The notes under the pieces are model-generated. The model was not told the origin of the DNA, made no database searches, and worked only from the letters and a program-made list of their open reading frames with translations. Made by a program: the position numbers and the translations under genes. Below, piece by piece: positions 1 to 51,400 of a DNA stretch of 64,000 nucleotides; within the stretch, counting starts at the first letter, position 1; each line of letters begins with the position of its first letter. Source of the DNA: Fidelibacterota bacterium (lineage in GTDB: Bacteria > Fidelibacterota > Marinisomatia > Marinisomatales > TCS55); contig JBHHTW010000007.1 in assembly GCA_046861385.1 (NCBI GenBank), forward strand, positions 11,775 through 75,774. The letters run 5' to 3'.

Positions 1-1179
1 AGTTAGGAATAATGAATAAATTTTATTGATCGATTTTTGCTTTAGCGTTAATTCAAATCCCGGGAATAGATTTTTATTGTCGTCAAACCATTGCAATATC
101 AGATACCTGGCAAATACATCCGTAATAAATTTATTGAATAAGAAACCGCTATTAATTGCCACTGATGAGTAAAATGAAAAATTATTTGATGTTCTTAAAA
201 GCCAATCCAGTGTAATCTCTTCATTCCCAATTTTCCCTAAAATACGATTCGTATTTAATTTCAGTAAATCTGTAATTGAAATGCCTGACATTGATTTAAC
301 GCCTTCAATGCTTTGGACAGAATCCCATAGATTATACAATTCATCATCATCTATGGAAACATCATATTTTTGATTAAGGCTCTCAATAAATTTTGAGAAA
401 CTTTCTTCTTTATAACCATATTTTCCTTTTACCAGATCTTTTTCTAATTTAGCCCGATCAATCTTTATTATATTTTTACCCTTTTTTGGAATAATTAAAT
501 CAACGATAATTACATGATATCCCATGGGTGTTTCCAATGGTCCATACAGTTTTCCCTCGGGAGAAGACCACACAACATCGTTGAAATTTTTGGGCATTAG
601 GCCAAAATTTATCTGACCCATTTCATTCCCTTTTATTTTTGAGGGCGGGGACTCGCTATAAATAGATAATGCTTCTCTATACGATACATCACCCTTAGAG
701 AGTCTGTTATAAATCGTTTTGGCCCTTTCAAATGCTTCAGCTTTAGAACGATTACTGGCTTTACCAAAAGAAAATCTGTGGGGAACAGTAATGGCTTTTA
801 CGAGAATATCTATATTGAGCGCTTTTTCTACAAAATCCAAGATACTGTCTGTAACAGTAAATTGATTTGAAATATATTTTTCTACTTCTTGAACAATGAG
901 ATCGTTTTTTAATCTGTTTTCTTCATATTCAATATTTAAATCAATTTCATTTAATACATTTTTTGGTTTCTCTGACAAAATTTTATGGACTGCATATTTT
1001 CTGATAAAGGTTCTTTTTTTTGTTGTATTTAGCTTATTAAAGTCTGTTTTATCTATACTTTTATATATTTCTGACAGATAAATATTTTTCCCTTGGATCG
1101 TTGCTGCTACATCCTTGAATCCGGAACAGGAAAAAAACAGGTAGAAAATGCTGATAAATATGGTCTTTAAGTATTTCAT
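1..1179 (-). CDS. PpiC/parvulin-type peptidyl-prolyl isomerase lipoprotein (runs off window start)
   Basis: Hand-translated from ATG at 1179: MKYLKTIFISIFYLFFSCSG (lipobox-like), later GPLETPMGYHVI (parvulin motif). Not in the ORF track because it is truncated. Confidence 0.75.
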   Translation of the reverse strand, partial: MKYLKTIFISIFYLFFSCSGFKDVAATIQGKNIYLSEIYKSIDKTDFNKLNTTKKRTFIRKYAVHKILSEKPKNVLNEIDLNIEYEENRLKNDLIVQEVEKYISNQFTVTDSILDFVEKALNIDILVKAITVPHRFSFGKASNRSKAEAFERAKTIYNRLSKGDVSYREALSIYSESPPSKIKGNEMGQINFGLMPKNFNDVVWSSPEGKLYGPLETPMGYHVIIVDLIIPKKGKNIIKIDRAKLEKDLVKGKYGYKEESFSKFIESLNQKYDVSIDDDELYNLWDSVQSIEGVKSMSGISITDLLKLNTNRILGKIGNEEITLDWLLRTSNNFSFYSSVAINSGFLFNKFITDVFARYLILQWFDDNKNLFPGFELTLKQKSINKIYSLFLT

Positions 1180-24057: not shown

Positions 24058-24543
24058 TTAAATTTCTTCAAACACGCCTGTCTTTTTATTCTTTTGGACT
24101 TTATCATAATTAAAACATTTTCCATTCATGGCAATATATACACCGCGGGGTAGGCTTTGGACAAAAGCAATGGCTGCTCCCAAGTTAAACAGACCGTCCG
24201 AGCTACCAAATTTAAAGGGAATCATTGCCCCTGTGAGAACAATGGTTTTTCCCAGATGCCTATCTGCCAGTAATTTTGCCGTTGTGGTCATGGTGTCGGT
24301 TCCGTGGGTAATAATAATTTGATCTTCTTCAACGCTTTTGCAATTGTCTACAATCAGTTTTCGATCTGAATCGGTCATATCAAGACTGTCTATCATCATT
24401 AGTTTGTGGATGTTCACATCTATTTGCGCTCTCCCAAGTTTGAGGATTTCTCGCATATGTGTGTCTTGGAAATAAAGCTTTCCATTTATTTCATCGTACT
24501 CTTTATCAAAAGTACCTCCCGTAATAAAGATTTGTATTGCCAT
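24058..24543 (-). CDS. Short single-domain asparaginase-family protein
   Basis: TGGTF and HGTDTM catalytic Thr motifs, LTGAM. Confidence 0.88.
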   Translation of the reverse strand: MAIQIFITGGTFDKEYDEINGKLYFQDTHMREILKLGRAQIDVNIHKLMMIDSLDMTDSDRKLIVDNCKSVEEDQIIITHGTDTMTTTAKLLADRHLGKTIVLTGAMIPFKFGSSDGLFNLGAAIAFVQSLPRGVYIAMNGKCFNYDKVQKNKKTGVFEEI

Positions 24544-26025: not shown

Positions 26026-27615
26026 TCATTCCTTATATCCGTCTAATTCCCTAGCAGAAGGATCAATGACATCTGTCCACTTTGGCATCCAGAAATGGGG
26101 GATAAGGTTATCATGCTTTCCGAAGAATTGTTGATATACTTTTCGATAATAATAACTCTCTTTCAATAGTGGTTGGCAGTGATTGATTTTTACTGATTCG
26201 CGCTCAAATTCTTCTTCAGTTATTATTTTGTCCACATGGTTTTGGATAATAGTATGCCAGGATTTATTGGCATTACTGACGCCATCAGAGAAAGCGCATT
26301 TTCTTCTCCAAAGAATATCCTTCGGAAGCAAATCCATTCCATCAAAAGCCTTTCGTAATAAATGTTTCTCCAGCCGTTTTTTACCATCAAACGTTTTTAG
26401 GTCTGGCGGGATGGATAAATAGTATTTCACGAACGCTTTATCTAAAAATGGTGTCCGTGCTTCCAACCCGTTTGAACTGATGCTGCGGTCGGAACGAAGC
26501 ACATCAAACAAATACAATTCTTTCACCAACCGTTCGCTCTCTGTTTGCAGCTCGGCTGGTGAAGGAGCGTTTTTGAGATACACATAACCACCGCATACTT
26601 CATCCGCGCCGTCGCCATTGAACACAACTTTGCAATCAGAATTTTCACGGATAAACTTTGATACGAGATAATTACCCACGCTGGCCCGAACGGTGGTAGT
26701 GTCAAAAGATTCAATATTATAGATCACTGTTTCAATGGCATCCAAAAAATCCTTTTCAGACACCTCAATTTGATGATGGATTGTACCAATATGATCTGCG
26801 GTTCTTTGGGCATATTTCAAATCAATGCTGCCTGTAATTCCAATGGAAAATGTTTTTAATGTATTGCCGTTACTGTGTTGAGCTACCAATGCCGTGATCA
26901 GACTTGAATCCAACCCTCCGGACAAAAGACAGCCAATTTCCCGTTCTGCCATCATGCGTTTTTCCACAGCTTTTGACAAATATTTCCGAATACCATCACA
27001 AATTTCATTTTCACGGCCGGTTGCAATTCCATCACCATTGTAATGAAAATAACGATGGAAAGAATCCGGGGTTTTTGAACTCCACCAGGTTCCCGGCGGA
27101 AAAGGTTCAATGGTGTCGCATAGGTTAATCATTGGTTTTGCTTCGGAAGCAATATAATGATCTTCGTCTTTTCTGCCAATGAATCCCGGGCGAACTCCAA
27201 CGGGGTCACGACCCGCGTAAAAAGAGTCCGATGTACTATCATGCAAAACAAACATAAAAACGCCATCCAGTTCTTTTACTGTTTTCTCCATGCCAAATTC
27301 CTTAAACAAAAACAGGATGATTTCACAGTCCGATCCGGTAGTTAGCTGAAACCCGTATTTTTCAGCTAATTGTTTATAATTATAAATCTCTCCGTTGCAG
27401 ACCAAGGTTAACGAGGGGTCCTGGGGGTGTTGCATGGGTTGGTCTCCCGTTTCAGAAACACCCATAATCGCCAGGCGGTGAAAGATAAAAATTCCCCTTC
27501 CTTCCAATATTTTTACATGGGTGTTTTCCGGGCCCCGGTATTTGATTTTGCCAGCGTGTTCCGCCAGGCTGTCTGGCGTTTGATTTGATCCCAAGTAACT
27601 AAAAATTCCACACAT
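26026..27615 (-). CDS. asnB: Asparagine synthase (glutamine-hydrolysing)
   Basis: MCGI N-terminus, HRLAI, NGEIYN, LSGGLDSS, GDGADE, EARTPFLD. Confidence 0.95.
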   Translation of the reverse strand: MCGIFSYLGSNQTPDSLAEHAGKIKYRGPENTHVKILEGRGIFIFHRLAIMGVSETGDQPMQHPQDPSLTLVCNGEIYNYKQLAEKYGFQLTTGSDCEIILFLFKEFGMEKTVKELDGVFMFVLHDSTSDSFYAGRDPVGVRPGFIGRKDEDHYIASEAKPMINLCDTIEPFPPGTWWSSKTPDSFHRYFHYNGDGIATGRENEICDGIRKYLSKAVEKRMMAEREIGCLLSGGLDSSLITALVAQHSNGNTLKTFSIGITGSIDLKYAQRTADHIGTIHHQIEVSEKDFLDAIETVIYNIESFDTTTVRASVGNYLVSKFIRENSDCKVVFNGDGADEVCGGYVYLKNAPSPAELQTESERLVKELYLFDVLRSDRSISSNGLEARTPFLDKAFVKYYLSIPPDLKTFDGKKRLEKHLLRKAFDGMDLLPKDILWRRKCAFSDGVSNANKSWHTIIQNHVDKIITEEEFERESVKINHCQPLLKESYYYRKVYQQFFGKHDNLIPHFWMPKWTDVIDPSARELDGYKE

Positions 27616-27643
27616 ATTTTTTATTTCCTTTAATTTTCTGTAT

Positions 27644-27679
27644 AAAAAAACCCTCGCTACTTTCGTTTGCGAGGGTTTT
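27644..27679 (-). terminator. Attenuator terminator upstream of asnB
   Basis: AAAACCCTCGC-AAACGAAAGTA-GCGAGGG-T7 on the minus strand, about 30 nt before the asnB start. Confidence 0.85.
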
Positions 27680-27701
27680 GTTTAAAACCAGTGTTTAGTG
27701 C

Positions 27702-27776
27702 CTACACAGATTCCCCCGCGCCAATATTATTGGCGTTAATATTATTGCGATTGGAGTTATCTGTGAAAAGTATCAT
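27702..27776 (-). CDS. asnB leader peptide MILFTDNSNRNNINANNIGAGESV
   Basis: 24-codon ORF with 7 Asn codons in positions 7-17, immediately 5' of the terminator. Confidence 0.8.
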   Translation of the reverse strand: MILFTDNSNRNNINANNIGAGESV

Positions 27777-27823
27777 ACGTTTCTCATGGTCAATTTAGGA
27801 ATAATTACTCCTAACAAACATTT

Positions 27824-28798
27824 CTAATTTTCTGACACCATAAATTTGGCTACGCGATTCTTTACTGGTTTCACTGTCATTAAATAATCATAAATCGCCC
27901 CCAGGTCTTCTTCTGTCATTCCCGCGTAAAACGTCCAAGGCATAACCGTGTTGCCTTCTCCGTCCGGAACTATCATGTTTTTTGCTTCTTTATCTGCATA
28001 AGCTTTAAACATTCCAATGAAGTTTTCCTTGGTTTTGTTGCCCATGCCCGTTTCAAGGTCTGGGGTAATATTTGCAGAAGTGGCAACTGTTCCATTTGGA
28101 AATGGAAATTTAAATCCACCGGCATAATCCATGCCGGCTATTTTTTGTCCCCGTTTGTCCTGAGGTGTGTGGCAACCAGCGCACCCTGAGATGGTGGTCA
28201 TATATTTCCCATAGGCGAGATGATCCGTTTTAACAGGCTCCGGATTGGCTTTAGACGGTTTTGGAATGGTTCGTACAATATATTGCATAGGAAAATTTAA
28301 TTTCCTTTTTGGAGGTGTATATTCAGCGGCTTTTAAAGTCCGGATATAAGCCACTATCGAAAATAAATCTTCCTGGCTCAAGCTTGAATAATATTCGTAC
28401 GGCATGATAGGAAACAGCGCTTCTTCTGCCTTGTTGACTCCGGAAGTTATTGCTCTTGCCAACTCGCCGTCAGACCAGTCGCCAATAGCATATGGAGTGA
28501 TGTTTTTAGAATATACTTTCCCAGGAAGCCCCTTGGACTCGTCAAAGAGTTCTCCTCCTTTTCCTTCTGTACCTGGCTCAATCGGGCCAGAATATTTATT
28601 CCAGTTTCTTGTGGCATGACAATCAATACATACGGTAACGTGATTTGCCAAGTACTTCCCTCGTTCAATTCTGCTGGGGGTTTGTTCAACCGTGATTTCT
28701 TCTGGGGGTCCAACTTTTATTGGGACCAGACTGGTACACGCTGATACAATTAATAGAAAAAAGAGGATAGACATTATCCTCTGATTATTTTGGCTCAT
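27824..28798 (-). CDS. Diheme cytochrome c lipoprotein
   Basis: Lipobox-like VSAC; CIDCH and CAGCH heme motifs; NITP repeats. Confidence 0.9.
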   Translation of the reverse strand: MSQNNQRIMSILFFLLIVSACTSLVPIKVGPPEEITVEQTPSRIERGKYLANHVTVCIDCHATRNWNKYSGPIEPGTEGKGGELFDESKGLPGKVYSKNITPYAIGDWSDGELARAITSGVNKAEEALFPIMPYEYYSSLSQEDLFSIVAYIRTLKAAEYTPPKRKLNFPMQYIVRTIPKPSKANPEPVKTDHLAYGKYMTTISGCAGCHTPQDKRGQKIAGMDYAGGFKFPFPNGTVATSANITPDLETGMGNKTKENFIGMFKAYADKEAKNMIVPDGEGNTVMPWTFYAGMTEEDLGAIYDYLMTVKPVKNRVAKFMVSEN

Positions 28799-48440: not shown

Positions 48441-51400
48441 ATGACCGTTTCACGTGAAAACAATTCAGCCTGGGACGTGCTTATTGAAACCGTTTCTTCT
48501 TCTGAATATTTTCGTTATCTTTTCTCTAAGAAGCCTGTTGCTTTAAAATCTCTTCCTGATGGTTTTTTATCATTACTCCTCTCTGCGTATGTAACGAAGA
48601 AGAAGGGCGCTGTTATTGTTATCGCTGATGATCTTGATTCTGAAAATTTTTATTTAACACTGTCTGACTTATTGCCCGATTTAATTCATTATGCCCCGAA
48701 GAAACAAGCTGTGACAGATGCGTCCTCCGTCTTTATTACTGAGGATGAAAAGCAATTTGCAGATGCATATAATTTTCTTGAAACAGGGGGTCGCGGTCTG
48801 CTTGTTGTTGCAAAATCTGCCTTGGGGCGCCAGGTTCGGTCTCCCTTTGAAAAAAACAATATGGAATATCTCCTCGAAACAAACAGCAAATCCAACATCG
48901 CCGCTTTATTGCGATCGTTGTCTGTGTGGGGGTATGAAAAAAAGACGGAAACCGTTACGCCAAAAACATTTTGCGTTCGGGGAGGAATTCTTGATATATA
49001 CCCTTTGTACTCCAAATACCCTGTAAGAATTGAAACGTTCGGAGACCTTGTAGAGTCTGTGCGGTTGTTTAACCCGGTGTCTCAGCTTTCGATAAAAACT
49101 ATTAATGATTTTAAAATTGTTGCTCCATCAGGCTTCTTTTCGAATAATATGGTTTCATTACAGGTTCTTTTTAAGGGCATTGAAGACGTCTTTTATTTAA
49201 AGCGCAGTGAAAAGGTTTTTCGTATATCCAACTCAACTAACGCTGTTGTTAAAGAAATCAAATTCAACGGTTCCTGTGTTGATAAAAACGCTCCGGCTAG
49301 AAAAAGCAAAAAAACATATGTGTTTACATCAAAAAAATCTATTGGAAAAAAATTAAAAATGTCTCTTGGTGGTTTTTTAATTATTGAAAAACCTCTGCCC
49401 TCAGGCTTCTTTTCCAATGATTTAAATCTCGTTGTATATGGATATACCGATCTGAATATTCAGAGGCCTTCGTCAGGGGGCGATTTGTCATTAACGCCAG
49501 AAACAAATGAAAGATTTACTTTGTCTAATATTGAATGGGGAGATCTTGTTGTACATGAAAACTATGGGATCGGGCTATACCGTGGACTGGCGAAAAAAAC
49601 AGACGTCGACAATCAACAGGATTTTATTGCAATCGAATATGCAGATGGGGGAATTGTTAATGTTCCAGTAGATAGATTTGATATTGTACATAAATATATT
49701 TCTGCTCATAAGGATTCTATAAAACTATCGCGCCTTGGCTCAAAACTCTGGTCAAAGCAAAAATCTATCATTCACAAATCGGCAGAATTAATTGTTGACG
49801 ATCTTGTAGCAATATACTCGTCGAAACAAGCTAAAAGATCCTTTTCCTATTCTTCTGATAATGAACTTGTAGAGTTGTTAGCCGGGAGCTTTCCGTTTGA
49901 AGAAACGCCCGATCAACAAAAAGCGATTCATGACGTTCTTGAAGACCTGGACAAAGCTTCTCCAATGGATAGGGTTATTTTTGGTGATGTCGGTTTTGGA
50001 AAAACAGAAGTGGCTCTTCGGGGCGCCATAAAAGCAATTGCCGGCGGTAGACAGGTTTTTTTTCTGGCGCCTACAACCCTTCTTGCAGATCAACATTATA
50101 TAACGTGTGAAAATCGCTTGAGCGAATTGGGCGTAAACGTTGCCTTACTTTCCAGATTTCAAACCAAAAAAGAACAATTAGAAATCATTAATCAGATTGA
50201 AACAAAGAAAGTTGATATTATCGTGGGAACACATCGGTTATTATCGGATGATATTGTAGTTAATAATCTCGGGTTATTAATCATTGACGAAGAACACCGG
50301 TTTGGAGTTAAACATAAAGAACGAATCAGAATCTTAAAACAAGACGTTGATGTTCTTACATTAACGGCAACACCTATCCCTCGTACGCTACAGCAGTCTC
50401 TTTTTGGTGTGCGAAACGTAAGCCGCATAAACACCCCTCCCATGGAACGTTTACCCATAAAAACAATAATAGGGTATTTTAATTGGAAAAAAATAAAAGA
50501 ACAGGTTGGGCGAGAATTGCGTCGCGGCGGCCAAATATATTTTTTACATAATGATATTAATTCTATTCCATTTGTCGTTGATAAATTACGCGATCTTTTT
50601 CCAAACCATTCCTCTGTGGGAGCGCATGGTTCTATACCAAGTAAAAACCTTGAAAAAATCATCCTATCCTTTTTCTATGGTGAAATTGATATTCTTGTGT
50701 GCACGACAATTATAGAATCTGGATTAGACGTTACAAGAGCAAACACAATTATTATTAATAATGCACACCGATTTGGCATTGCTCAGCTTTATCAAATTAG
50801 AGGTCGCGTTGGACGTGGAAACGTTCAGGCTTACTGCTGGCTGCTAATTCCACACAAAACGCTTAAGAAAGAGGCATATGAGCGATTGCGGGCAATCGAA
50901 CATTTTTCTGCACTTGGATCAGGATATCAAATCGCCTTAAAAGATTTAGAGATCCGAGGAGCGGGGAACCTTTTTGGCTATGAACAAAGTGGAAATATAG
51001 GAAAAGTAGGTTTTCACCTATACTGTAAAATATTGAATAAAGCTCTTGATGAAAAATTGAAAGGTTCGGGCTTTAAAAAAGTCACGCGCCCAACGGTCTC
51101 AATTAAAAGAGGCGCTTTTTTTTCGGAGGAATATATCCCTATAGTTCAAGATAGGATTTACTATTACCAGAGGTTGGCGTCTGCAGTAAATACTGATGAG
51201 GTTTTTGCGGTAAAATATGAAGTTTTAGATCGTTATGGTAAAATGAGTGAAGAGGCCGATAATGTGATAAATGCAGCTTATCTTCGGGAACTATTTTTGA
51301 ATTTAGGTGTGGAAAAAATATTATTAGATACTCGCCTGGTGAGATTCGACTTTTCAAATCAACCCGCCGGCGGTGGAATCAATTTTTCAGAACTATATAA

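Follow-up and report, generated by a model that had tools for sequence, protein, structure and literature searches.

A putative leader-peptide attenuator with asparagine codons upstream of asnB in a genome of an uncultured marine phylum

Can a bacterium tune its asparagine synthase gene by letting a ribosome count asparagine codons? The question is raised by a 64,000-nucleotide stretch of DNA from a Fidelibacterota bacterium (GenBank assembly GCA_046861385.1, contig JBHHTW010000007.1, positions 11,775 to 75,774 of the forward strand; hereafter, the window), on whose minus strand asnB is preceded by a short open reading frame (ORF) rich in Asn codons and by an intrinsic terminator. Textbooks describe attenuation by leader peptides for a small number of amino acids, chiefly in Proteobacteria, and to our knowledge asparagine falls outside the classical set of trp, his, thr, leu, ilv, and phe attenuators; in Escherichia coli, asnA is under the control of AsnC. 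An earlier reading of the letters of the window, made without database searches (the sequence-only reading), had proposed that ribosomes stalling on the Asn codons of this ORF allow read-through into asnB. Every prediction of that proposal that could be checked at the level of sequence was borne out. We consider it very likely, from comparison of sequences and from their predicted folding, that the asnB leader is a ribosome-mediated (leader-peptide) transcription attenuator which tunes asnB to the supply of charged tRNA-Asn. The anatomy of the element, its conservation, selection at the level of its codons, and the compatibility of its structures with such a switch were supported directly.

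Anatomy of the leader region and its improbability by chance

The sequence was re-read on the minus strand of the window, on which all elements were numbered, and the coordinates previously given for the leader ORF, the terminator, the P1 hairpin, and the GCGGGGG run (G-run) proved exact (Table 1). The ORF of 24 codons indeed contained seven Asn codons within 11 positions (codons 7, 9, 11, 12, 14, 16, and 17). The terminator, with its GC stem and its run of seven U (U7), had been placed about 30 nucleotides (nt) ahead of asnB and was found to end 28 nt before the asnB ATG (27615), whereas 86 nt separated the leader stop codon from the asnB start. The CGCCAAU/AUUGGCG hairpin covering the last Asn codons (P1) was recovered as described. 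The G-run ended 8 nt upstream of the leader stop codon, and the 5' arm of the terminator, CCCUCGC, doubled as the 3' strand of the antiterminator. The protein encoded downstream exceeded the cut-offs of the NCBIfam equivalog model for AsnB (NF006949; 501.4 bits, cut-off 499) and of TIGR01536 (371.6 bits, cut-off 267.1).

The whole genome of the host (2.43 Mb, 39% G+C) was taken as the baseline for chance occurrence. Of its 121,667 stop-to-stop frames with a length of 11 codons or more, five presented seven or more Asn in 11 codons, the window leader being one of them. Ten other frames with at least six Asn in 11 codons, namely the nine shortest ones together with the only frame to reach eight, were inspected as possible attenuators and discarded; they were located inside or antisense to coding sequence, without a comparable layout of terminator plus gene. 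The terminator folded at -17.8 kcal/mol (z = -5.66; none of 200 shuffled sequences equalled it), and the 171-nt leader region as a whole gave a fold z of -4.51. A simple terminator scanner missed this hairpin, whose 11-nt loop is above the limit of the scanner. When a covariance model of the element was run against its own genome, one significant match was obtained (E = 1.3e-17), the runner-up reaching E = 0.035. The arrangement of leader and terminator is not a product of chance.

Table 1. Elements of the asnB leader region, from 5' to 3' on the minus strand; positions are those of the window.
Feature	Position	Strand	Description
Promoter-like stretch (candidate)	27791..27818	-	TTTG 27818-27815, 17-nt spacer, TAAATTG 27797-27791; ends 14 nt before leader ATG
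Leader ORF, 24 codons + TAG	27702..27776	-	ATG 27776, TAG 27704-27702; encodes MILFTDNSNRNNINANNIGAGESV
Region 1 (leader codons 4-10)	27747..27765	-	Candidate anti-antiterminator, able to pair with region 2 if no ribosome is on the leader
P1 hairpin	27719..27735	-	CGCCAAU-AAU-AUUGGCG; contains Asn codons 16-17; abuts the antiterminator
Region 2 (G-run and last sense codons)	27705..27722	-	G-run GCGGGGG 27719-27713; 5' strand of the antiterminator
Spacer enclosed by the antiterminator	27676..27712	-	Inner hairpin spans the stop codon
Intrinsic terminator	27644..27679	-	AAAA + CCCUCGC 27675-27669, 11-nt loop, GCGAGGG 27657-27651, U7 27650-27644
Shine-Dalgarno-like AAGGA of asnB	27626..27630	-	Inside the 28-nt spacer 3' of the terminator
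asnB, glutamine-hydrolysing asparagine synthase B, 529 aa	26026..27615	-	Pfam Asn_synthase + GATase_7

Conservation of the element and its probable reading as codons

A survey of asnB upstream regions in related genomes had been named beforehand as a check of the proposal, and the Asn-rich ORF and terminator were widely retained there. In 41 related genomes, 14 asnB loci combined a complete 5' end with an identity above 55%. Each of the 14 presented a leader ORF rich in Asn (5-9 Asn in 11 codons), after which came a G-run, a terminator with a C-run, and a tail of six to nine U. Distant asnB homologues (26-37% identity) were excluded from this count, and the two that were inspected (G011 and G020) had no leader, as was the case for a locus of 41% identity (G175). 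Named loci with a complete asnB 5' end amounted to 39, most of them titled Candidatus Marinimicrobia / Neomarinimicrobiota (SAR406), along with a few titled "uncultured bacterium", one Fidelibacterota, and one mentioning Marinisomatales; the element was present at 29 of them. The covariance model, applied to 151 genomes of the order, yielded 31 matches at E = 4e-12 or better, distributed in 30 genomes, and the best 30 of these matches were all directly upstream of asnB. In a phylum-wide sample, asnB of this type was found at E = 1e-100 or better in 36 of 251 genomes. A genome from another family of the same class (G221) displayed an asnB of 41% identity with an Asn leader at L083:172-299 (-), MTNRNYTTNLFFTLNNNIERGFM, including three consecutive Asn; this leader has a G-run, a hairpin, and a terminator and scored 44.4 bits with the model. 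The occurrence of the element is thus confined neither to the order nor to a single asnB subtype.

Thirty-one distinct homologous leaders were compared codon by codon. An in-frame ATG was found ahead of the Asn run in every one of them, and the relatives of the window leader carried 4-10 Asn in 11 codons. The Asn-rich cores, comprising 288 codons, contained 157 AAT and 58 AAC (215 in sum), in contrast with only two AAA plus AAG; in an AT-rich genome, this points to selection for Asn codons and not for A/T content. Outside the Asn run the peptide varied freely between subgroups. The G-run, on the other hand, was kept at the nucleotide level across different codon registers (GVGE, SGGE, and GMG), and it ended 8-11 nt before the stop codon in all 31 leaders. 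This conservation of the G-run in RNA, read in differing registers, accounts for the conserved look of the C-termini (GVGESV, SGGEAL, and GMGxLI).

It is within subgroups that the C-terminal GVGESV and SGGEAL look conserved, which, together with the fact that lasso cyclases are homologues of asparagine synthetases, could suggest that the product of the small ORF is an Asn-rich peptide with a function of its own, for instance the precursor of a ribosomally synthesised and post-translationally modified peptide (RiPP) such as a lasso peptide, processed by an AsnB-like cyclase. We regard this as extremely improbable. Besides the RNA pairing that explains the C-terminus and the free variation of the sequence outside the Asn run, the enzyme reached 113 bits with the lasso-cyclase model NF033535 (cut-off 525) as opposed to its score above the cut-off of the AsnB equivalog, and it retains the N-terminal Cys amidotransferase domain; moreover, a terminator stands between the leader and asnB, and neither a maturation protease nor a RiPP recognition element (RRE) family was matched among the neighbouring ORFs scanned.

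The genes bordering the unit on its 5' side were not constant. The nearest upstream frame was on the same strand in 7 of 13 loci and on the opposite strand in 6 of 13, whereas the unit stayed with asnB, indicating that the hairpin is not simply the terminator of a conserved upstream gene. This bears on the possibility of a chance ORF in an AT-rich spacer, with the hairpin serving as the terminator of the cytochrome c gene upstream. Such an origin would fit the position of that gene (27824-28798), which is on the same strand and ends 48 nt upstream of the leader ATG, as well as the ease with which AAT repeats arise in AT-rich DNA. Not only the changing neighbour is at odds with it: the Asn frame is open and starts with ATG in 31 of 31 leaders, its density of Asn was attained by only the five frames mentioned above, and the G-run is complementary to the terminator arm in all 31. 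A chance origin seems very improbable to us.

As regards the 3' side, the stretch between the terminator and the gene appears too short for an asnB promoter. The distance from the U-run to the asnB ATG was 11-32 nt in 13 of the 14 loci, and motifs of the AAAGGAA/GGAG type occupied the Shine-Dalgarno (SD) position in most relatives. Since the spacer of the window holds only the SD-like AAGGA, asnB is probably transcribed through the terminator. This motif is 14-18 nt past the U-run and takes part in no predicted helix, a point against the idea that control is translational, leader translation or an alternative folding governing access to the asnB ribosome-binding site. The leader stop and the asnB start are close enough for this (86 nt), and leader ORFs near structural genes have been proposed in PMC4833913 to aid re-initiation. 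Nonetheless, all 31 leaders have a hairpin of the canonical intrinsic-terminator type, with a tail of 7-9 U, and the SD lies outside every predicted helix, so that we give translational control very little credence.

Two of the relatives depart from the usual layout. In a genus-mate (L003:1309-1500, the same as L032), the U-run and the asnB SD are separated by an insertion of about 166 nt that has terminal inverted repeats; the insertion looks like a miniature mobile element and, if it bears a promoter, could uncouple asnB from the attenuator. At L014 / L026 (G039:C1:33542-34999), the asnB homologue contains eight stop codons (two TGA, one TAG, and five TAA) and has lost its first 40 residues, being an apparent pseudogene.

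Pairing, folding, and the proposed switch

The sequence-only reading had described the pairing of the leader GCGGGGG with the terminator arm CCCUCGC as an antiterminator that excludes the terminator. This pairing and the inner hairpin were analyzed by register-anchored scripts and a random-window control. The G-run and the terminator C-run paired over four positions in 31 of 31 leaders, with more pairs following in most. The window displayed GCG/CGC/GCG where most relatives have GUG/CAC/GUG (21 relatives with U/A/U at the flanking position); this change on all three strands at once preserved both the antiterminator and the terminator helices in the window. Compensatory changes were also observed at four of the nine pairs of the terminator consensus helix (RNAalifold, 31 leaders). 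The final 25 nt of the leader ORF formed seven contiguous pairs with the terminator 5' arm, a number equalled or exceeded in 0.175% of 20,000 random genome windows, and the chance of the antiterminator pairing was at most 3.7% for any of the 31 leaders.

The structures adjoining the antiterminator were preserved to different extents. P1 together with the antiterminator folded at -21.7 kcal/mol (z = -3.18). With altered sequence (e.g., GCUAAU/AUUAGC or ACCAAU/AUUGGU), P1 recurred in about two thirds of the leaders, and it was absent in the SGGEAL-type subgroup. The inner hairpin spanning the stop codon was present in all 31 leaders with a stem sequence peculiar to each subgroup; dG averaged -6.9 and z averaged -2.3, with 19 of the 31 hairpins below -2. 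In the leader ORF alone, where codons 4-10 pair with the G-run region, the minimum free energy (MFE) was -22.5 kcal/mol (z = -4.27), a value that none of 200 shuffles matched.

Constrained folding had likewise been suggested as a check, and it was performed with a mask in which only the RNA located 3' of the ribosome and 5' of the second terminator arm was available, as in the nascent transcript. The MFE structure of 28 of the 31 leaders included the antiterminator with one or more of the Asn stall positions, as opposed to none of the 31 when the ribosome occupied the stop codon. In the window it appeared with stalls on codons 7, 9, 11, 12, 14, and 16, not 17, and a larger ribosome footprint agreed with this. 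The pairing, the chance control, and these modelled folds all favour the predicted exclusive antiterminator.

From these elements the following sequence of events can be proposed. Transcription would start upstream of the leader and, with transcription and translation presumably coupled, a ribosome would translate the 24 codons as RNA polymerase proceeds. When Asn-tRNA(Asn) is plentiful, the ribosome would reach the TAG, thereby covering the GCGGGGG located 8 nt upstream and opening the inner hairpin; CCCUCGC would then be free to pair with GCGAGGG, and the resulting terminator would stop transcription 28 nt before asnB. If Asn-tRNA(Asn) runs short instead, the ribosome would stall on Asn codons 7-16 and leave the G-run free to pair with the nascent CCCUCGC; with the antiterminator stacked between P1 and the inner hairpin, the terminator would not form and asnB would be transcribed. 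If no ribosome is present, codons 4-10 could sequester the G-run region, a situation favouring termination.

Several results weigh against this mechanism. The antiterminator pairs were counted in whichever register gave the most pairing, and the antiterminator alone was marginal (-15.3 kcal/mol, z = -1.81, 11 of 200 shuffles as good). Pairing of regions 1 and 2 was the preferred fold without ribosome in the window, but in only about half of the 14 relatives. The inner hairpin of the window was weak (-3.6 kcal/mol, z = -0.6), and its leader was the most degenerate of its genus, with at most two consecutive Asn vs. runs of 4-9 in relatives. Three of the 31 leaders (L050, L010, and L047) formed no antiterminator in the mask model. 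On a MAFFT alignment of the 31 leaders, RNAalifold recovered the terminator as the only helix; the antiterminator and the inner hairpin occupy different columns from one subgroup to another, so that one structure defined column by column cannot represent every row. Full-length equilibrium folds contained the terminator whatever the position of the ribosome, and given that the terminator always wins at equilibrium, the choice of the switch would have to be kinetic and made during transcription. Inside the leader (27769-27738), a consensus scan gave sigma-70-like hexamer matches, where an internal start would bypass the sensor; these matches are probably due to the AT-rich Asn codons. Lastly, the element was absent at 10 of the 39 named loci, corresponding to nine very AT-rich relatives and one Bacteroidaceae gene (43% identity). 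The nine relatives (L039, L040, L055-L058, L062, L063, and L065) have an asnB of 58-69% identity and a very AT-rich upstream region with neither an Asn leader nor a comparable terminator; these lineages seem either to have lost the attenuator or never to have acquired it.

Some of these points would also suit a terminator that does attenuate asnB in response to a signal other than Asn-tRNA, such as general translation speed or coupling, a protein, or a small RNA, in which case the Asn codons would be incidental. At equilibrium the terminator is favoured for any ribosome position, the Asn codons of the window are interrupted, and leaders without amino-acid specificity are known, ermC being an example treated in part of PMC2965389. 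Nevertheless, across very different leader peptides it is the Asn codons that are conserved (the 215 of 288 vs. two counted above), the gene controlled is an asparagine synthase, and the predicted antiterminator is freed precisely by stalls on Asn codons. We therefore hold a non-specific signal to be unlikely and retain attenuation by ribosomes stalled on Asn codons as the preferred explanation.

Genomic setting and comparison with known systems

The candidate promoter, TTTG-17 nt-TAAATTG, resembles what we take to be Bacteroidota-type -33/-7 boxes, and a TAAATT(G/A)-like motif was found 10-20 nt ahead of the leader ATG in the closest relatives (L002-L005); transcription of the leader may start from this stretch. 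A look-up of RNA sequencing runs for positions 26900-28300 yielded none. A mini-ORF of four codons (MRNV; 27773-27787, minus strand), whose TGA overlaps the leader ATG (ATGA), was not conserved in relatives and is probably incidental. Two genes downstream of asnB, a 161-aa ORF (24058-24543, minus strand) matched only an asparaginase N-terminal domain (Pfam PF00710, E = 2.4e-26) and remained far under the cut-off of every NCBIfam asparaginase model; we take it for an asparaginase-like protein of the short-chain type, or else for a fragment.

AsnA was not found in the host genome (97.85% complete). AsnRS was present (502.5 bits), together with one tRNA-Asn(GUU), and asnB had no second close copy. 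Free asparagine made by AsnB thus appears to be the only source of Asn-tRNA found in this genome. Elsewhere in the same genome, outside the window, contig C73 carries at ~48530-48720 (+) (L134) a short ORF, MNMRRRPNHHHRPF..., with three consecutive His codons, followed by a strong terminator 15 nt before hisG (72.6 bits on TIGR00070 for the first 80 residues); this leader scored 24.6 bits with the Rfam His_leader family (cut-off 49). It looks like a second leader-peptide attenuator, and a His-codon leader with its terminator ahead of hisG makes control of the leader type plausible in this genome.

Related leaders were also encountered ahead of lysW-lysX operons of other Marinimicrobia (L119, L129, L117, L120, and L128), which the asnB-leader model matched weakly (E = 4.5e-7 to 6.1e-4). 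In L119, the leader (84-170, plus strand) consists of 28 codons, is rich in Lys and Arg, and ends in SVGVSV, with a G-run, a stop-codon hairpin, and a C-run terminator nearly as in the asnB leaders; it precedes lysW (321-485; 65.1 bits for LysW, cut-off 53.2) and lysX (482-1354; 329.7 bits for LysX, cut-off 275.6), and may be a lysine/arginine attenuator on a shared platform. No lysX-like gene was found in the genome of the window by tblastn. The lysW-lysX leaders and the hisG leader suggest that a terminator/antiterminator module is reusable in this lineage. On this basis we advance, tentatively and with more doubt than conviction, a lineage-specific family of attenuators in which a common 3' platform (a G-run 8-11 nt ahead of the stop codon, an inner hairpin over that codon, and a C-run terminator) would be combined with a 5' part of the leader whose codons set the specificity. 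Were this so, attenuators in the phylum would evolve via duplication and codon swapping.

Comparison with Rfam 15 at a permissive threshold gave no family that reached its gathering cut-off, and the weak matches fell mainly on the terminator: 23.8 bits for His_leader (RF00514; cut-off 49), 22.3 for Leu_leader (RF00512; 50), 21.0 for Thr_leader (RF00506; 55), and 25.1 for the trpB motif (RF04312; 59). The 31 distinct sequences and the working covariance model define an unannotated RNA family missed by genome annotation and by Rfam. The T-box covariance model had no match in 27300-28200, even with E allowed to rise to 10. In Firmicutes, T-box leaders specific for Asn precede genes of the asnS/asnA type and bind uncharged tRNA directly, with no need for translation. 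They have in common with the mechanism proposed for the asnB leader that the charging of tRNA-Asn is sensed and that a terminator and an antiterminator compete in the 5' leader, whereas the sensor proposed here is a ribosome translating Asn codons. AsnC of E. coli, a member of the Lrp family, likewise couples an asparagine synthetase gene to asparagine supply; in contrast, AsnC is a protein that binds DNA and exerts its effect at a promoter, and its target is asnA instead of asnB. The asnB leader would represent a regulator of asnB outside both the AsnC and the T-box paradigms.

In the open full-text literature searched, a scope which excludes subscription papers and supplementary tables, no attenuator with an asparagine leader was found, and term look-ups confined to parts of PMC9723704, PMC4833913, PMC7366714, PMC2965389, and PMC2659441 returned none. 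PMC9723704 points, in the part covered, to a Table S7 of flavobacterial leader-peptide candidates, which may bear on priority. Amino-acid-specific attenuators outside the classical set and outside Proteobacteria are exemplified by the poly-Cys leaderless short ORFs of mycobacteria, according to part of the text of bioRxiv 10.1101/834739; these differ from the asnB leader in the amino acid and the phylum, and in that they belong to leaderless mRNAs with operonic effects and do not show a terminator and antiterminator paired in the manner of the asnB leader.

If our interpretation is correct, an asparagine version would widen the set of amino acids sensed by stalled ribosomes and would show leader-peptide attenuation in Marinimicrobia. 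The element controls, on this interpretation, the only asparagine-synthesis gene found in the genome, and its conservation extends across families of an uncultured phylum that is abundant in the ocean. In SAR406 metatranscriptomes, leader-only asnB transcripts would then become an in-situ reporter of asparagine sufficiency.

The closest parallels are the classical enterobacterial attenuators (trpL, hisL, pheL, leuL, thrL, and ilvL/ivbL), represented in Rfam by Trp_leader, His_leader, Leu_leader, Thr_leader, and Phe_leader. Common to them and to the asnB leader are a short leader rich in codons for the end product, an intrinsic terminator right before the biosynthetic gene, an antiterminator sharing one strand with that terminator, a stop codon placed so that the terminating ribosome blocks the antiterminator, and a possible 1:2 pairing. 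The asnB leader differs from them in its predicted use of asparagine and control of a single gene and not of an operon, in its host, which belongs to an uncultured marine phylum and not to the Proteobacteria, and in possessing an extra hairpin that holds the last Asn codons plus an inner hairpin over the stop codon. Judged on its sequence and that of its relatives, we conclude that the asnB leader is most probably a real leader-peptide attenuator, in which a known mechanism would have acquired a new amino-acid specificity.

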